Source: Leucoraja ocellata (lineage: Eukaryota). Taken from it: a DNA stretch of 51,400 nt. The stretch covers positions 1-51,400 of the forward strand of contig JAWMAR010004410.1 of the NCBI GenBank assembly GCA_036785375.1. The letters run 5' to 3'. Of this stretch, positions 10,767-51,024 are shown one piece after another; position 1 is the stretch's first letter, and the number at the start of each line of letters is the position of its first letter. The translations under genes were made by a program, and so were the position numbers. The notes beneath the pieces were generated by a model. It was not told the origin of the DNA. It was given only the letters and a program-made list of their open reading frames with translations, and searched no databases.

Positions 10767-10815
10767 ATGCAACTCCTCCTGAAGCTGCTTTTCCTCCTGC
10801 ATGCAGGAACACAAG
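10767..10815 (+). CDS. IgSF receptor copy A, exon 1: signal peptide MQLLLKLLFLLHAGTQ(G)
   Basis: ATG in AAGATG context, hydrophobic leader, phase-1 donor AAG|GCAAGT (GC-AG type). Joins the V exon in frame. Confidence 0.75.
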
Positions 10816-11522
10816 GCAAGTTATGTTGATCGGACAATCTGTGGGCCAAGGAGCCGTGATGAGGATCTTCATTATGTGGCATATTGCATCGATAGGTAGT
10901 TCAGGAGCTAGTCTGTTATTAAAACAGCAAGTCGATTAATATCTCTGCTCAAAGGCCGAGAAACCCTTCACAATATTTAGTCTCCATTTAATCAGTATCT
11001 TTAATGTTGGAATAAAAGTTTTGCATCTTCATTGACTGCGATTGCCTGCAAAGATTCAAATAGTTAAAACATTTGAGATATAATTCGGTCACTGCAACTC
11101 CATCAGAGAGCACAAAGCAAGAAACTTACGAAGGTGTAGAAACGAAGAACAGCAGATTCTGGTTTGCAAGTGAAGACACAGAGTGCTGGAGCAACTCAGC
11201 GGGTCAGGCAGGCAGCATCCCTGGAGAACATGGATAGGAGGCGTTTCGGGTCGGGACCCTTTTCCAAACTTTGAAAAATCATCTCATCCATGTGCTCCTG
11301 AGATGTTTCCTGACCCGCCGAGTTACTCCAGCCACTTGTGTCTTTTCTAGCGTCCAAATATCACGGTGCCACCTGCCACCGAATCTGCTGAGAGAAGGCA
11401 TTTGCAACCATCATGGAAGCGAGAATCGTTGTTTGAAAACGTCAGATTTGAATGCGTTTCTTTTAAGTATTGTTTCCGTTAGAAAACCAATCCCTCGTTC
11501 AGTGTGTAAAGTGGATGTTTAT

Positions 11523-12258
11523 AGGGTGATTTCACCAAAGGTCAAATGAGCGTAGACCCCCCATCACGTGACCGAAAATTTTAACTGGAGGACATCTCTC
11601 AGTTCGGTACATGTAAGTGAATGGGGAAACAGCACTTTCCCACCCGTTAAAAACATGGAAAACGGCCGATTTTTGAGCTGAAATTTTCTGTGCTAGTCGG
11701 GGTGACCGTGAAGCACAGCGACCTAAAATTTCAGGCAAAATAAAAGATAGAAAGTAAGGTAAATACAAGAGGGAACTGAAGGTGGAACACAGCGGAAGTG
11801 AACAGCCGACATTTGCCGTGGAGATTTTAAGATCCAAAATATCGGGAATTATCGCGTTTGCTCGCTAAATTTCATCAAAAGTAAGTTAATAATGCCTTCC
11901 TTTTGATGAAATTCAGCGAGCAAACGCGATAATTCCCGATATTTTGGATCTTAAAATCACCACGGCAAATGTCAGCTGTTCACTTCCACTGCTTTCTACC
12001 TTCAGTTCCCTCTTGTAATTACCTTACTTTCTATCTTTTTTTTGCCTGAAATTTTAGGTCGCTGTGCTTTACGGTCACCCCGACTAGCACAGAAAATTTC
12101 AGCTCAAAAATCGGCCGTTTTCCATGTTTTTAACGGGTGGGAAAGTGCGTGTTTCCCCATTCACTTACATGTACCAAACTGAGAGATGTCCTCCAGTAAA
12201 AAATTTCGGTCACGTGAGGGGGGATCTACGCTCATTTGACCTTAGGTGAAATCACCCT
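11523..12258. mobile_element. Fold-back (palindromic) non-autonomous DNA transposon, copy A only
   Basis: Arms of about 360 bp are near-perfect reverse complements around a ~20-nt spacer (about 11881-11900). Ends are AGGGTGATTTCACC...GGTGAAATCACCCT, flanked by AT/AT. The paralogous empty site is GTTT-AT-TGAACT at about 29557-29568. Confidence 0.9.
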
Positions 12259-12309
12259 ATTGAACTACTAACGGGAGTATCATTGACAAATGTATTTATT
12301 TTCCACCAG

Positions 12310-12657
12310 GAGTTCCGCTAATCACAAATTTGATCCAGCCACGTCTGGTCAAAGTGTGCAGAGGCGAGTCCGTCACGTTAAACTGTACGTTTAGTTATAA
12401 TGGAAGTGTGAATGCCTGGCTCCGCGTTTCATGGTATCGGAAATCGCCTGGAGGGGCTGATATTACTTACAACACGAACAACTCGCTCTGCATTCCTCAC
12501 CCCCTCTGGGGTGGTTTCAACAACTGTACAGTATCACTGATGATTGAAAATGTATCGTTTGGTCACTCTGTTTACGACTACATCTGTGCGGTGAAGGTAC
12601 CAAATGTCTTCCCTCCAATTTATGAAACGGGCCAAGGAACACGAATACAGGTTTATG
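12310..12657 (+). CDS. IgSF receptor copy A, exon 2: VJ-type V-set Ig domain
   Basis: Acceptor TTTTCCACCAG| and donor ATG|GTAAAG; 348 nt, phase 1-1. V-set motifs GESVTLNC, WYR, SLxIxNV, YxC and a J-like GQGTRIQV. Confidence 0.92.
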
Positions 12658-14261: not shown

Positions 14262-14552
14262 ATCTTCCAGAAATGTATATACGGAGTGATACTTTGGTTG
14301 CTGGTCATGAATCCACTCTAACCTGCACTGGCAAGGGATTGTACGACAAGGATGTCTCCTTTACATGGACATGCACTTCTACAAATATCACTGCACCAAC
14401 TTTTGAAACAGACAGGAATGGCACACTAGTTGCCACCAGTCATTACAAGATTGTCCCAAGAGTGGAAGACAATGGAACTGTTTGCAGTTGTCAGATTAAT
14501 CATTCCGTTTTTAGACGGCCAGCTGTAAATACGATCAAACTAAATATTATGT
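14262..14552 (+). CDS. IgSF receptor copy A, exon 3: C1-like (or nectin/CD80-type C2) Ig domain
   Basis: Acceptor CTCTCAG| and donor T|GTAAGT; 291 nt, phase 1-1. Motifs LTCTGKGLYDKDVSFTW, DRNGTLVATS and CQINHS. Confidence 0.92.
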
Positions 14553-16438: not shown

Positions 16439-16756
16439 ATGGACCACAAGATCTATTAATAACATACAGGTTGAAAGCAGTGGATACTTTTCGACTGATC
16501 AATGATAGCATCATCTTTGTTGCTGCTGATTCATTCCTGGAACTGAATTGTCGCGTAGATAGTAATCCGGTGCCCACTGTTTTCTGGACAAATGCTACGG
16601 AGAATCATAATGTAACGTTGCAAACTGGAGTCGGGTTCAAAAGTTCAAAAGAATGGATACGTTTCCAGCGTAAAGATGAAGGAATGTATTGGTGCATGGC
16701 AAAAAACGACTACGGCTGGAGAAACAGAAGTATCTCGATAAACACAAAACGGAAAG
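16439..16756 (+). CDS. IgSF receptor copy A, exon 4: C2/I-set Ig domain
   Basis: Acceptor CCGTTAG| and donor AAG|GTAAAT; 318 nt, phase 1-1. Reads (Y)GPQ...LELNCRVDSNPVPTVFW...DEGMYWCMAKNDYG. Confidence 0.92.
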
Positions 16757-17155: not shown

Positions 17156-17247
17156 ATTATCCTTGGCTTTATGCCCTGGTCCTGGTCCCCCTAACTACTG
17201 CCATCATTTTGGCAATAATATATTTTTGCCTGTTCCGAAATAGGTAA
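17156..17247 (+). CDS. IgSF receptor copy A, exon 5: transmembrane segment ending in TAA (DYPWLYALVLVPLTTAIILAIIYFCLFRNR*)
   Basis: Acceptor TTTCTTTCACAG|, hydrophobic stretch, and TAA at 17245-17247 where copy B has CAA. The ancestral donor AAG|GTAAAA remains at 17254/17255. Confidence 0.85.
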
Positions 17248-17260
17248 CAAAAAGGTAAAA

Positions 17261-28806: not shown

Positions 28807-28855
28807 ATGCAACTCCTCCTGAAGCTGCTTTTCATCCTGCATGCAGGAACACAAG
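28807..28855 (+). CDS. IgSF receptor copy B, exon 1: signal peptide MQLLLKLLFILHAGTQ(G)
   Basis: Paralog of 10767-10815, with the same GC donor AAG|GCAAGT. Confidence 0.75.
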
Positions 28856-29611: not shown

Positions 29612-29959
29612 GAGTTCCGCTAATCACAAATTTGATCCAGTCACGTCTGGTCAAGGTGTGCAGAGGCGAATCCGTCACGTTAAACTGTACGTTTAGTTAT
29701 AATGGAAGTGTGAATGCCTGGCTCCGCGTTTCATGGTATCGGACATCGCCTGTAGGGCCTGATGTTACTTGCAACACGAACAACTTGCTCTGCATTCCTC
29801 ACCCACTCTGGCGTGGTTTCAACAACTGTACAGTATCACTGAAGATTGAAAATGTATCGTTTGATCAATCTGTTTACGACTACATTTGTGAGGTGAAGGT
29901 ACCAAATGTCTTCCCTCCAATTCATGAAAAGGGCCAAGGAACACGAATACAGGTTTATG
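29612..29959 (+). CDS. IgSF receptor copy B, exon 2: VJ-type V domain
   Basis: Same splice sites and phase as copy A; open frame ending IHEKGQGTRIQVY. Confidence 0.92.
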
Positions 29960-32839: not shown

Positions 32840-33130
32840 ATCTTCCAGAAATGTATATACGGAGTGATACTTTGGTTGCTGGTCATGAATCCACTCTAAC
32901 CTGCACTGGCAAGGGATTGTACGACAAGGATATCTCCTTTACATGGACATGCACTTCTACAAATATCACTGCACCAACTTTTGAAACAGACAGGAATGGC
33001 ACACTAGTTGCCACCAGTCATTACAAGATTGTCCCAAGAGTGGAAGACAATGGAACTGTTTGCAGTTGTCAGATTAATCATTCCGTTTTTAGACGGCCAG
33101 CTGTAAATACGATCAAACTGAATATTATGT
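32840..33130 (+). CDS. IgSF receptor copy B, exon 3: C1-like domain
   Basis: Paralog of 14262-14552; one amino-acid difference (V/I). Confidence 0.92.
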
Positions 33131-34478: not shown

Positions 34479-34796
34479 ATGGACCACAAGATCTATTAAT
34501 AACATACAGGTTGAAAGCAGTGGATACTTTTCGACTGATCAATGATAGCATCATCTTTGTTGCTGCTGATTCATTTCTGGAACTGAATTGTCGCGTAGAT
34601 AGTAATCCGGTGCCCACTGTTTTCTGGACAAATGCCACGGAGAATCATAATGTAACATTGCAAACTGGAGTCGGGTTCAACAGTTCAAAAGAATGGACAC
34701 GTTTCCAGCATAAAGATGAAGGAATGTATTGGTGCATGGCAAAAAACGACTACGGCTGGAGAAACAGAAGTATCTCGATAAACACAAAACAGAAAG
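34479..34796 (+). CDS. IgSF receptor copy B, exon 4: C2/I-set domain
   Basis: Paralog of 16439-16756; four amino-acid differences. Confidence 0.92.
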
Positions 34797-35789: not shown

Positions 35790-35891
35790 ATTATCCTTTT
35801 CTTTATGCTCTGGTCCTAACTATCCCCCTAACTACTGCCATGATTTTGGCAATAATATATGTTTGTCTGAACTGCAAGAGGCAACGGAAAG
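35790..35891 (+). CDS. IgSF receptor copy B, exon 5: TM plus stop-transfer (DYPFLYALVLTIPLTTAMILAIIYVCLNCKRQRK)
   Basis: Acceptor TTTCTTTCACAG| and donor AAG|GTAAAA; 102 nt, phase 1-1, open. Hydrophobic helix followed by a basic cluster. Confidence 0.88.
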
Positions 35892-41411: not shown

Positions 41412-41624
41412 TTGGTCTACCCATTCCACAAGCTCCCATTGGTCTGCCCATTCCACAAGCTCCCATTGGTCTGCCCATTCCACAAGCTCCCATTGGTCTG
41501 CCCATTCCACAAGCTCCCATTTGCCTGCCCATTCCACAAGATCCCATTGGCCTGCCCATTCCACAAGCTCCCATTGGCCTGCCCATTCCACAAGCTCCCA
41601 TTGGCCTGCCCATTCCACAAGCTC
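41412..41624. repeat. 27-bp minisatellite, about 8 copies (TTGGYCTGCCCATTCCACAAGCTCCCA)
   Basis: Head-to-tail units are directly visible, with no spacers. Confidence 0.95.
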
Positions 41625-44236
41625 AGACAGCATTAAAAATTTGGTAATCCTATTTTAAAGTGTTAAAGAGTCATGTAGCATGGAAACAGACCCATCGGCC
41701 TAACTTGCCCATGCTAACCAAGATGCTCCATCTTCACAAGTCCCACCTGCCCATGTTTGGCTCTCTAAACCTTTCCTATCCATGTACATATTTGCTGTGT
41801 GTTCTGTGTGTTCACTATCATTGACACCATAAGTGTTATTGGATGAGTGTCTTGGTTTGTCTTAAGCATTCCTGTGAGTTACTCCAGCACTTTGTGTCCT
41901 TTTGTGTAAACCAACATCTGCAATCCCTTGTTTTTACACTGAGAATTCTGCTGGACTGGACTTGGAAGGACCCAAGATACAGTAGAAAGGCTGATGTGGG
42001 AAGCAGAGGGCAGCTGAGTGACTGTCAATACAAACAGATACTGTAGTTAACAAAGTTGCTTGAGTGGAATACTTGTTCTAGTTTGCGTTAGGTTCTGAAG
42101 ATGGTAGAAACATTACTCACTCTCTGAGCAATCACCTCTGCTTGTTGGGCTAATTGCTTACAGATATTGTGAAGTGCCTTTCAACATTTTGTACTACAAT
42201 GAATAATCGTACCATTTCCTGGCAGTGCATCGAAATAATAATAACTTGTCAAACAGCCTTCTGGTGGACTAAAGAACATATAATCATGCATTATCTTGTT
42301 CTGTGTGAAATTATACTTACTTTACTTAATCTCTTTAAATTAAGAACATTAAATCATTGTAGCTGTTTGCTGCATAATCTATACAACATGTTTATGACAC
42401 TCCCAAGTTTGGGTGCAATAGGTTTGTCAGAGAATTGGCCACAGTATTATGGTTCTTAACATGTTCATTAAATGAAAACTCCTGAATTCTCCGAGTATAT
42501 TAGTCTAGTTACAACCAAAGCATGAAAGACGGCCGGATAAGTCTCTAGGGAAAAGTACTTTCAAATTAATTCATTTTTGATTACATCTTATCTATTGTCT
42601 TCATAATTTTATATTACCTTCATGGGCGTAGTCGACCATCATATCCTGGTTTCACTTCCCTCTTAAACCAGCGAAGACTCAGCTACAAGGAGTTGTAGGA
42701 GTCGTTTTGTGACAATTCAACTGTGCAAGTGTTTCTCCGTGTTTGCTGAACCCATATGATGCTCCACATCTACATATTCAGTCAAACATAGAGGATGCAT
42801 GGATTTGAGTCAGTTAAGACAGTGACCCCAGCAATGAGTCAAGAGACCCGGGCTTCATGAACAGATACTTTATGATACACGAAAGCTATTATCAAGCACA
42901 ATCGTCTAGCAGGATAGCAGTGAAGACTATTTTTAGAAGCATGGTTATATTATTGTGGTCTAAAGCAGCCTTTAGTAGGAATTGTAACAAATTGATACTC
43001 TATTGACAAAATGCATTCTGGTAATAAATAGAACTTTAAAAAAAAAAGCGATGGAAAAGATGGACTGTAAAGCTAAAATATGATTACTATGGTAATTAAA
43101 GTACATTTGAACCTAATATTTTAATAATTTAAAATATAGGTCTGGTTGAATATTGTTTTCAGTTTGTTGGCTTCATTTTTGTTTTAGTGATTGTTCCCAA
43201 TATTCAGCCTAGCTGCATGAGCACCTGTGTTGGAGATTATTATACCTTGAAACTGGCAAATGGCTTTCGATGCATACTACGATAAAGCCTTTGTTTTCGA
43301 TCTGAATAACCTAGAACAGAGAACTTTCTTCAGTGAAAAGCTCCAAGAAAGTTGGGATTACGTATTCATTCTATTGTTTCAATCATGTTATAGGAGTAAT
43401 CCAAAAAGTTATTGGATACGGATTTTTAGATCTAGAAGTCATTGAGGTAGCAGCTTAGTTTATTGTTTATTATCATGTGTACCGAGGTACAGTGAAAAGC
43501 TCATGTTGCCTGCTAACCAGTCAGCGGAAAGACAATACGTGATTACAATTGAACCATCCACAGTCTTATCCAAAAGTTATACCTCAGTTATATACTTGCA
43601 TTGATGACTGATCTGCAGAAGTACAATGGGCAGTTTTGCGGAACACTCCTAAATTGCCCTCTGCGACGTACAAGATCGTTATTGATTCTTTATGCCCAAC
43701 AAAGTCAATTTGCAGAATATATGGACAAATACTCTTGGTGCACAAGAAGACCAAGGTGCAAACTTTTGATTCAAGGGTTTCTCAAGGAATTCCTCTTTGG
43801 AATTCACTCTGGATATCATGACAGCCCAGAGAGCAGTTAATCACATGGCACAACGTTGGTAGTCTAAAGTAACAAATATTGTTCATCGTCAATAATATAC
43901 ACACTTCATACTGAGATGTGAATCTGTGTAACTTTATCGGAATGGAATCTGGATTTCCCAATTTTAACGAGAAGCGAGTGAGCAAACTAGTACTGAATTA
44001 ATTAAAACTGTGGAAGATGCAGGTTGACATTGCCCTTCGTGTTGAACGTCTCCAGAGTAGGATGCAAGCCCACAGCCTTCTGACAAAGTGTTACCAAAGT
44101 GATGCTTTCTACTGAGGGAGCAAAAAGCCAATGCTAATGATACCTCAGGAGTGACTGATCTAATAATCACAACTGACAAGCTGTGTTGAAATTAGCATTC
44201 GATTGTCAAATACATGTTTTCTTTCCCTTTCCCCAG

Positions 44237-44264
44237 ATCCAGTCAATGTAACCATTGAGCTGAG
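44237..44264 (+). CDS. Candidate cytoplasmic micro-exon of copy B (DPVNVTIEL[R/S])
   Basis: Strong acceptor TTTTCTTTCCCTTTCCCCAG| and donor GAG|GTAAGA. Only the phase-1 frame, which matches the TM exon, is open. Confidence 0.55.
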
Positions 44265-47254
44265 GTAAGAACTTTGATTTAATTTTAACATTATGTGAAA
44301 ACATTTGATTAATATATTTATAATATTGTACAGTTTGTTTAATTATTTCACATTCCACCAGATCACTCAAGTACTAATTTATATCATTCCCAGAACCCCA
44401 AATTCTACTGAAATGCAGTAAATGAGAAGTTGATGCTAACAGTGTCAGAAAATTACTGCAAACCTTCATGATTTAACATATCTCAGAAGTAAAAGTTGAT
44501 GTGTAACAACATAAATCAGTGTAGGGGTCTATGAAAAGCTTCATTTGTCCATGTTTATTCTACACGCCCAATTCTTATGTTTGTTATCCACAGAAAATAT
44601 AAGAAAATGTAATTGAAAACCTCCAAAGGGAACAACGCCTAACCAAAATGCGTGACAATGAGATGGGTGTTTCCCAGTGGGTGATAGAATTAATGTTTTC
44701 AATTGGAATTAGAGGAAGAACTAAAGACAATGTAAAGGCATTAATTGCACTGACAAAACACTGGTAGTTCAGAATATTTCACTTTCACTATCACCAGTCT
44801 CCAGATGCAACTCTGTATGCATTGCTGAGGTGTCCAACAGTTGTCTTCCAAACATCTTACTACACTTTAATCCCTGAGAATATTTCCCATCTGAGAGTCC
44901 AAGCATTAGGTGTCTTTCAGGCTTAGTGTATTTTTTCAATCTCTCAACCCCTGTTGCACCAGAGCCCAAAATACCTAAGATGAACAATGATTAGAAATGT
45001 CACAACTGCTATCACTGTTAGCTGCACTACCCGATGATGACTCTAAACTGTGCCTGGTCAAGTTTTTTGTTGGACGATCAGTAATACCGCTCGAACATTC
45101 AGTCAGCTCATCAGCAACTTGGAGTTTTTTTATTCGTTGCTAATTTTAACAACACTAATTTGGTCAAATGATGGGATTTAATACTTTCAAGAGAGGAAAA
45201 TCCTTATGTCCCATTCCCATTAATAAATGTTATTCTTCAATGGCTTTACATTAAACACCATTTACTCATTTCAAATGGGTGACATAACCATGGTAAGTGC
45301 TCTGGATGTAATTGAATACATAGTAAAAAGATGATGAATTACTCTGTATGGAAAGGAAGTCTGGACAAAGGTGACAGACTGTGCAGTATGACATTGGCTG
45401 GTAACATTGTTCAAGCCATAAAGCACAACATGGTTGTGGGAATTGTGCAAGTTATTAAAATGCATAAGACTGTTACTTTTCTACCACGTATACAATGTCA
45501 TTAGACAATAGAAGAATGAAATAAGGCTAATAGTATTCTCTTTTAAAATTATTTCTATCTTGTATTGATTTTGTCTTTTTTTATTTCTATCTGTTCAAGT
45601 CCTGAAAACATGCACAGGGATGAAAACTGCAACAAGGAGTTAGGTATGTATATTATATGCAACTGTGTTTAGTTTAGTTTAGAGATACAGCATGGAAGCA
45701 GGCCCTTAGGCCCACTGAGCCTGCACAGACCAACAAACACCTGTACACAAGTTCTACCCTACACATGAAGGACAATTTACAGAAGCCAATTAACCTACAA
45801 ACCTGCACGTCTTTGGAATGTGTGAGGAAACCGGAGCAACTGGACGTAACCAAAGTGGTCACAGGGTGAATGTCCAAACTCCATACAGACAGCACCCGTG
45901 GTCAGGATCGAACCAGTGTGTCTGGTGTTGTATCAGACAGAGTACACTAACTATTCAATGTCAATTGTGAAAAGTTCAACTGTACATGTGAGACCAAAAG
46001 AGCATTGAACTAAAATGTAATCAGCGGGTTAACGCTTCTTCAGCAGTTCTAAAGGATACAACTTTATTTGGACCAGTATCTGAGAGTCCAAGCATTAGTC
46101 ATTGTCCATTATCTCAACCCCCATGCCCAGCTTTCCTCAAAACCATCCCACCTCAATCCTGATCATCAGCCCAGAGCCTCGACTCCTACCCCGTCCTAGC
46201 ACCACCACCCATCTAAAACAACAGCCTGGCAGATAATATGAAACAGGACATAAATTACAGCAAAACGTGACATTGGTAGATAACATAATACAAGCATTAA
46301 ACTGATGGAAGATTGTGGTTATTATGCAAGTTACTAGGCAAAACAGTAGGGAATGGAGAGATATGGATTACATGGAGGTAGAGAAGAGATGGTCTGCCAT
46401 CATGTCGGCACAGACATCATGGGCCACAAGGCCTGTTCTTGTGCTGTCCTGTGTTCTATGTGGTAAGTGTAGCATGCTTCAGACAATGTGGGTGACTCTT
46501 GACATTTGGCTCTCCTACATTTCAATAATTTTCCTCAAAACATTTCTTGACTTGTAATTGGAATTTATTTCTCTGATCAGTCAACAGCATTGTATGAGGC
46601 AGTTTACAGATTGGTAAAAGGCTAATAAGGTGGGCCTTGGTCTTATACCTCCTGGCAATGCTTATCTTCCTGAGAAGCTGGTGTATAACAGCTAGTAAGG
46701 GCTAACCCTGAGGGTCCTTCAGGAAAATGGGATTCTCTTCAATTGGAAGCATGTAGGTTTCCTCCCACATCCCAGAGACGTGCAGGTTTGTAGGCTAGGT
46801 GACTTCTGTAAATTGCCCCAAATGTTTAAAGAGCGAGGAAGAGAGTGGGATAACCTAGAACTAGTGGGAATGGGAGAGCAATAATCAGCCTGGCCTCGAT
46901 GGGCCAAAGGGCCTGTTTGCATGCTGCATCCCGAAAACTAAAACTAAATTAAAAACCATCACACTGTGGACACTGGGGAGAACTCCAGAGGAGTACTTGA
47001 ACACGTATGGGGAAGATAGGTATTAAGCAGATGCACGTTCATTGATTTTGGGGTTTTTTCGCAGTAGGTGGATGCATAAATGTGATCTACTATGTGGTCT
47101 GAAATATAGTCACAGTGACATATAGCATGGTAACTACCCTTTGACCCTACTTGCCCATGACAACTGAAGTGCCCCAGCTACACTAGTCCCACCCGCCGGC
47201 ATTTGCCCCATATACCTCTACCTTCCCTGTCCATGTACAAGTTCAAATACCTAT

Positions 47255-50788: not shown

Positions 50789-50848
50789 ATACAATATATG
50801 CAGTGGTCAGGAAGAATGGCCCACCAATCAGCAGACCGTATTCAACCG
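50789..50848 (+). CDS. Cytoplasmic exon with ITSM (DTIYAVVRKNGPPISRPYST)
   Basis: Acceptor TTTATTTGGCAG| and donor CCG|GTAAGA; 60 nt. In phase 1 it encodes TIYAVV (TxYxxV) at 50791-50808 and is frame-compatible with the copy B TM exon. Confidence 0.7.
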
Positions 50849-50926: not shown

Positions 50927-51024
50927 AGGTTGCCTTTGTTAATGAAGGGAACAGTGAAGAAGAAGTCTCCTATGCGGACATTGTTATCCACAGTCCAAAA
51001 CAACGCTACAACCAAAAAGCCAAG
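50927..51024 (+). CDS. Cytoplasmic exon with ITIM (EVAFVNEGNSEEEVSYADIVIHSPKQRYNQKAK)
   Basis: Strong acceptor GTTCTTTTCCCCACAG| after a 78-nt intron, and donor AAG|GTATTG. VSYADI (50965-50982) is preceded by an acidic EEE. The gene may continue past the window. Confidence 0.75.

Follow-up and report, generated by a model that had tools for sequence, protein, structure and literature searches.

Probable paired V-C1-I immune receptors encoded around a single-exon VJ-type V domain in Leucoraja ocellata

Described receptors with VJ-type V domains

SIRP receptors form inhibitory and charged-membrane partners, the charged membrane residue of SIRP-beta being a lysine. They share with the family described here (V-C1-I) three Ig domains, of which a non-rearranging V is followed by C1 (PMC2785349), and the SIRP V is among the best non-antibody PDB matches of the family V. 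The third domain (D3), however, is C1 in SIRP and I-set in the family, the family V differs in its PP loop and its additional pair of cysteines, and the charged membrane residue is an arginine, which differs from SIRP-beta. Siglecs likewise have ITIM tails and paired forms. Both Siglecs (CD22, MAG) and nectin/CADM proteins have the same order of V, C1-type, and I/C2 domains, and the second domain (D2) of the V-C1-I family is structurally tied with D2 of MAG, CD22, nectin, and Necl. In contrast to these groups, the family has no sialic-acid arginine, retains canonical V cysteines, carries a GxG strand, and forms its own V clade.

As for NKp30 (NCR3), it is an activating receptor with one domain and an arginine in the membrane segment, and its single-exon VJ is also found in the family. 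NKp30 is MHC-linked (PMC12227049), whereas the V-C1-I family has three domains and non-MHC neighbours. UrIg and UrIg2 are elasmobranch molecules with a single-exon VJ followed by C1, as in the family; they have at least three C1 domains, form Ig-like homodimers, are linked to the MHC or to the antigen-receptor complex, and are argued to be precursors partly through this linkage (PMC12227049). Paired ITIM/arginine classes, present in the V-C1-I family, are not described for UrIg/UrIg2 in the accessible part of that paper (PMC12227049).

CD28, CD28H, CD28HL, and CD28X share with the family a VJ-type V, a GxG motif, and an FG loop that has the same length and contains prolines, and domains of this type have the best scores with the family profile in the skate genome. 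The CD28 family is, however, defined by a single V domain, a transmembrane (TM) segment, and a tail (PMC11599192), and it also differs in its synteny and in the PPP/EIP motif, which is missing in the V-C1-I family. Joined VJ domains are further listed for CD79, NITR, SIRP, CD8, NKp30, and PRARP (PMC11599192). Such lists of non-rearranging VJ genes underlie arguments on antibody and T-cell receptor (TCR) origin, and the V-C1-I family seems to be missing from the accessible ones because databases label its members Siglec, CADM, or MAG. With VJ, C1, ITIM, and paired forms already known from SIRP and others, the kind of system is not new.

Exons, transcripts, and neighbours of the locus

The window analysed here is a whole contig of 51,400 nucleotides, which matches contig C136 at 97-99% and, judging by sequence, is likely its second haplotype. 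Coordinates without a contig name refer to the window. The following exons belong to two gene copies.

10767..10815, + strand, copy 1 leader exon (signal peptide), read from the sequence, with the same N-terminus as RefSeq protein P0001 and a GC donor
12310..12657, + strand, copy 1 V exon, V-set with B and F cysteines, an extra cysteine pair, a PP FG loop, and a GQGT G strand
14262..14552, + strand, copy 1 C1-type exon, 13 residues from Cys to Trp, CQINH, without the FYP motif
16439..16756, + strand, copy 1 third Ig exon (I-set), from Pfam and a splice join in run X1
17156..17247, + strand, copy 1 transmembrane exon, uncharged, with an in-frame TAA at 17245-17247
28807..28855, + strand, copy 2 leader exon, read from the sequence, with a GC donor
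29612..29959, + strand, copy 2 V exon, protein 88% identical to copy 1
32840..33130, + strand, copy 2 C1-type exon, 99% identical to copy 1
34479..34796, + strand, copy 2 I-set exon, 96% identical to copy 1
35790..35891, + strand, copy 2 transmembrane exon, reading openly into the tail
41941..41985, + strand, copy 2 possible alternative short terminal exon, a tblastn match to the short tail of P0002, then a stop
44237..44264, + strand, copy 2 tail exon 1
45600..45643, + strand, copy 2 tail exon 2
50789..50848, + strand, copy 2 tail exon with ITSM-like TIYAVV
50927..51024, + strand, copy 2 tail exon with ITIM-like VSYADI
C136:1570513-1570376, past the window end, copy 2 last exon with ITIM-like SEYSVV

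The stretch 12310-12657 is a real spliced single-exon V domain with a C1-type exon next to it. It is a phase 1-1 exon bounded by AG and GT, and frame 3 stays open to the C-terminus quoted by the first-pass annotation. Its Pfam V-set score is 39 bits (E 1e-9, cut-off 26), and its AlphaFold model (pLDDT 90) shows the strand order of a V domain, GQG being the point at which the G strand is interrupted. Exon reading, Pfam, and AlphaFold thus bear out the GxGT G strand that had been proposed on a non-rearranging single-exon VJ-type V. The C1-like exon expected after it was confirmed as well, since 14262-14552 scores 30.5 bits for Pfam C1-set vs 18.2 for C2-set_2, and the third Ig exon scores 37.9 bits for Ig_3 and 29.6 for I-set. 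The earlier two-domain reading of copy 1 has accordingly been replaced by three Ig domains, a TM exon, and two sister genes. Two contigs from run X1, taken for RNA by guess, have the joins 12656->14261 and 14552->16439 at the predicted sites; the V part of the X1 contig has 8 differences in 119 bases from copy 1, so its source may be a sister copy or a relative. A RefSeq little-skate protein that goes by the name Siglec-13-like has a V matching the copy 1 V exon at 100% identity.

The V-C1-I-TM unit is repeated about 18 kb downstream, and the duplicated unit stops short of the tail exons. The tail of copy 2 has one ITSM-like and two ITIM-like motifs. Copy 1 has a stop four codons past the membrane segment, which is also present on C136, and no tail exons belonging to it were found downstream; it is predicted to be tailless. 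RefSeq P0001, in turn, has a copy-1-type V joined to the full tail. The change that creates the stop, at 17242-17250, also gives rise to a possible GT donor (AG/GTAACA) of a different phase, and copy 1 could be spliced otherwise via this possible cryptic donor. RNA reads on the I and TM exons amount to 4 in one of the four runs and to zero in the other three.

A third gene (gene 3, C136:1638637-1648131) lies head to head with copy 1. The profile search over 800 kb around the cluster found three family V exons only. One flank contains CBS, a PMP22/claudin-family gene, JHY, and a family-35 galactosidase, as well as BSX-like and B3GAT1 exons recognised by eye, and the opposite flank has an orphan V exon, a weakly mesothelin/stereocilin-like gene, and OPCML. 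We take most of these flanking genes to lie at human 11q24-25.

Several further features accompany the cluster. The leader exons of both copies have a GC splice donor (at 10816-10817 in copy 1). Directly upstream of the copy 1 V exon there is a 740-base element with terminal inverted repeats (11521-12260), which is missing from copy 2 and also matches the C136 site in reverse orientation, and a copy 2 intron contains a 27-base tandem repeat of about 8 units (41412-41624). The orphan V-set exon beside the cluster (C136:1668313-1668618, minus strand; L021:8314-8616) has no F-strand cysteine, and neither a clear PDB match nor further exons were found for it. Its position alone makes it a candidate ligand; a B7-like reading of the exon (C136:1668314) was dropped, the best PDB match being no better than E 0.002.

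Relationships of the V and C1-type domains

The GxG motif of the G strand is present in 24 of 25 family rows and is not specific to the CD28 family. An F or W ahead of it, as in the J consensus F/W-G-x-G, occurs in none of 24 family members, and the germline-joined IgL exon L006 of the same genome has F/W-G-x-G. The term germline-joined, which the first-pass annotation had applied to copy 1, implies a past RAG join, no sign of which was seen. A search for recombination signals gave 8 loose matches around two V exons and none inside them, a number that has no chance control. Of 26 rows, 24 retain the extra V cysteine pair, and the canonical B-F cysteines are retained as well. Regarding the FG loop, PP is found in 20/26 rows, including all 17 elasmobranch rows, and PPP in 0/26; a PPP-type loop is therefore not what the family has. 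The focal loop has PP and contains neither PPP nor EIP.

With the V profile, PDB antibody chains come first, followed by a TCR alpha and SIRP V; few of the best 60 of 3782 PDB matches are neither antibody nor TCR chains, and SIRP-alpha and SIRP-beta belong to these few. Structure searches did not assign the V to a class. The top 50 VIA matches to the V structure (Z 12.6-10.7) are a mix of TCR, Ig, PD-1, Siglec-15, and SIRP, Foldseek reports almost entirely antibody and TCR entries, and the ESM Atlas returns generic V-set clusters.

Within the skate genome the scores suggest a link of the V domain to CD28H-like domains, and this is where the foremost alternative comes in, namely that the family is a multi-domain offshoot of CD28/CD28H whose proline-bearing FG loop binds a B7 protein. 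When 60 skate V loci were scored with the family V profile, the 7 best were of CD28H-like, CD28HL, or CD28X type (37-48 bits), followed by Siglec/MAG-like (34 bits), IgL (32), and TCR (31) loci. The true CD28H, however, has only 29.7 bits, and the 60 loci were gathered in part with CD28H-type queries, which biases the set toward CD28H types. CD28H and CD28X labels come from motif identity to Data Sheet 4 of PMC11599192, HL labels from resemblance, and the others were assigned by eye. The distance from the F cysteine to GxG is 14 residues, the same as in skate CD28H (PMC11599192, Data Sheet 4). On the other hand, once the F-G end is removed from the profile, a MAG-like Siglec V becomes second (36.0). 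The CD28-like F-G end proposed earlier thus stands as far as the top-scoring loci are concerned, whereas the affinity fades without that end. Scored with a CD28H-type profile, family members reach 15-52 bits and Ig/TCR domains 12-48, two ranges that overlap, and ICOS V-set_2 matches 0/21 family proteins.

In the tree of V domains (43 rows, consisting of 16/25 family rows and 27/32 other rows, with no SIRP sequences), the family is one clade (99/89) and is excluded from the Ig/TCR clade (96/91). Placing the family in one clade with CD28-type, Ig/TCR, or Siglec domains yields p-AU of 0.41, 0.43, and 0.56, respectively, so that none of the three is rejected. Family V is not firmly grouped with nectin or Siglec V in this tree, and D2 has a higher Pfam score for C1-set than for C2-set_2 in 15/21 proteins; it was the opposite pair of outcomes that the first-pass annotation had named beforehand as speaking against it. 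Since CD28-family proteins have by definition only one V domain (PMC11599192), while three Ig exons, no PPP in any row, and a focal V without PPP or EIP are found here, the CD28 offshoot appears unlikely, although it fares best among the alternatives.

A separate question is whether copy 1 matters at all. It could be a decaying duplicate, and the corresponding reading takes it for a truncated, non-functional segmental duplicate, with only copy 2 and gene 3 being of relevance. In favour of such a copy are a duplicated unit that does not reach the tail exons, the in-frame stop past the membrane segment, and a pN close to pS in V. All Ig exons and splice sites are, however, intact, and Amblyraja (P0003) and Rhinoraja (P0002) likewise have an annotated partner with a short tail. 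Copy 1 and copy 2 differ by 14 non-synonymous changes per 264 sites in V and by 5 per 471 sites in C1 and I (p 0.001), and the two haplotypes of copy 2 by 10 vs 3 (p 0.003). Amino-acid change is thus faster in V, while C1 and I stay 96-99% identical, which also speaks against a dead copy. As for positive selection in V, no significant excess of pN was detected in 10 pairs (lowest p 0.23), and because pN is not significantly above pS, relaxed constraint may play a part. Taken on this evidence, a non-functional copy 1 is rather doubtful.

According to Pfam, C1-set exceeds C2-set_2 in D2 of 15/21 proteins, the order is reversed in 5/21, and neither model matches in 1/21. Using the C1 hallmarks of PMC2785349, the spacing of 13 residues from Cys to Trp is present in 24/25 rows, an FYP-type motif in 8/25 (the focal copy not among them), CxVxH in 6/25, and Cx(V/I)xH in 21/25. 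The D2 model ties between MAG, IgY Fc, nectins, CD22, SIRP-gamma, MHC class II, and Necl D2 (Z 12.1-11.3, rmsd 2.2-3.0, 90-96 aligned), and D3 is I-set/Ig_3 rather than C1-set. D2 of CD22 and of MAG is also C1-type (PMC5624926), so the C1-type label is correct without being peculiar to antigen receptors. The order of V and C1 is likewise common to SIRP, CD22, and MAG, and taken alone is no pointer to antigen-receptor origins. Of the suggestion that copy 1 bears on these origins, the non-rearranging VJ-type V with a C1-type D2 was upheld, and the significance attached to it was not. A special tie of the family to antigen-receptor origins is possible, being no better supported than the alternatives.

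In its strongest form, this tie would make the family a close surviving relative of the gene that a RAG transposon split into Ig and TCR. The single-exon VJ with its GxG, the C1 spacing, and the full C1 motifs of gene 3 are in line with such an ancestry, as are the lambda light chains that are the best PDB sequence matches to V and the unrejected clade with antigen receptors. PDB is, however, crowded with antibodies, the F/W before GxG is absent, and the Ig/TCR V clade leaves the family out. Moreover, no MHC or antigen-receptor markers are among the neighbour exons read over 800 kb, unlike UrIg and UrIg2 (PMC12227049), and joined VJ is also known from the receptors listed above (PMC11599192). 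A relative of this kind is improbable. A Siglec-like sialic-acid lectin, as the automatic RefSeq names imply, would agree with the V-C1-I order and ITIMs of MAG and CD22 (PMC5624926), with their place among the tied D2 matches, and with the p-AU for Siglecs, but is highly improbable given that the arginine after the F cysteine, whose counterpart Arg120 is required in CD22, is found in 0/26 rows, that the B-F cysteines are canonical, that Pfam Ig_CD22 matches 0/21 family proteins at E<=0.1 (31.5 bits for a frog Siglec control), and that the Siglec-type V exons of the skate genome lie on contigs other than that of the cluster.

Paired forms, V-exon conversion, and spread of the family

Gene 3 has a short transmembrane exon that begins with FPVRFVT and carries an arginine; its leader and tail were sought on C136 and none were located. 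Its C1 exon has 47.6 bits for Pfam C1-set and motifs more canonical than those of copy 1. Compared with copy 1, gene 3 is 79% identical in V, 26% in C1, and 32% in I, vs 47%, 54%, and 53%, respectively, for the arginine-type sawshark P0059. Trees of 25 rows reflect the same split: C1 and I of gene 3 join sawshark P0059 (97/99 and 100/95), and its V goes with the inhibitory V exons of the skate (99/96). The DNA common to copy 1 and gene 3 is a single tract of 453 bases around the V exon (87% identical), other short matches having been taken as repeats and set aside. The V exon alone of gene 3 has been converted from the inhibitory type. Paired receptors typically exchange ligand-binding exons between their inhibitory and activating members.

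As in paired receptors, linked ITIM-bearing and charged-membrane genes with similar ligand-binding V domains are found in the cluster. By analogy with such systems, it is quite probable that the V-C1-I proteins are a paired immune-receptor set, with copy 2 as the inhibitory, gene 3 as the activating, and tailless copy 1 as the decoy member. They would most likely be leukocyte surface receptors, and the V tip, to judge from SIRP, Siglec, and NKp30-type receptors, would bind a cell-surface protein. Once phosphorylated, the ITIM/ITSM-like motifs of copy 2 would recruit SHP-1/SHP-2 and dampen the cell, while the arginine of gene 3 may pair with an ITAM adaptor of FcR-gamma or CD3-zeta type and lead to activation; because this arginine sits on the outer margin of the membrane segment, the adaptor is a putative partner only. 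Copy 1, having no tail, might compete without signalling, and the V conversion would let gene 3 keep up with the ligand of its partners or with a pathogen mimic of that ligand. Regarding this ligand, another IgSF or self protein is the leading, if tentative, candidate, a B7-type protein is conceivable, and a glycan or other molecule seems a fairly distant prospect.

Homologues of the family comprise at least 16 proteins from rays, sharks, and the elephant shark (chimaera), and among bony fishes were found in coelacanth, paddlefish, bowfin, gar, and sturgeon; a search with alignment A2, covering 918-2620 residues, gained one sturgeon model. Their automatic names are Siglec, MAG, CADM, or SIRP-like. 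ITIM/ITSM-type tail motifs are present in 19 of 26 family proteins examined. A short-tailed class has its arginine where the membrane segment starts. Sawshark P0059, bamboo shark P0213, and paddlefish P0177 share the arginine-bearing start of gene 3, and the coelacanth member, P0095, also has a membrane-segment arginine. In paddlefish and coelacanth, the inhibitory and arginine classes have consecutive accessions and contigs of equal length. Sharks, coelacanth, and paddlefish have both classes, and the two predate the split of sharks and bony fishes. For teleosts and tetrapods, there is no named family-V protein among the matches listed, the profile list being crowded by multi-Ig giants. Models P0010 (Hemiscyllium) and P0053 (Chiloscyllium) have tandem V domains, or V directly on an ITIM tail; the latter, if the model is real, would be a CD28-like single-V form.

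No published description of the V-C1-I family was found, and a term search of 9 supplements of PMC11599192 did not find the P0001 accession. This novelty is provisional, and overlap with the tetrapod VJ-C1 genes and PRARP, both mentioned in PMC10751288, may exist. The family is real, is probably undescribed, and would consist of SIRP-like paired receptors mislabelled as Siglecs. Cartilaginous and early bony fishes would then have a SIRP-like inhibitory/activating pair with a clean, datable V-exon conversion. A more far-reaching view, which we regard as unlikely, is that the family is as old as jawed vertebrates and joins a CD28H-like VJ to a true C1 in a paired checkpoint for B7-type ligands. 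If true, it would form, with a gene pair on contig C175, a living link of the CD28 family, SIRP, and the antibody/TCR precursor.

The C175 loci (1140518-1144000 and 1200280-1206040; L148 and L152) appear to be a second VJ-C1-TM gene pair and are arguably a better VJ-C1 candidate than copy 1. Their V domains are CD28H-like, with EIPPP and an extra cysteine pair, and share 42% identity, the C1 exons are near-identical (Pfam C1-set 73.7 bits), and an arginine is present in one membrane exon and absent from the other. They are interleaved with B7-H3 (CD276)-like exons (C175:1163659-1169505 and 1224867), and a third V copy lies at 1081555-1081905. Loci L175, L176, L178, L179, and L180 (contigs C3523, C276, C203, and C531) have a single-exon VJ with GNG strands and some PPP loops, and some of them may be NKp30 or CD28 homologues. 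Finally, contig C424 (L099-L103, L108, L109) carries a cluster of C1 exons, one of which has a V exon upstream and which looks B7-H6-like by eye.
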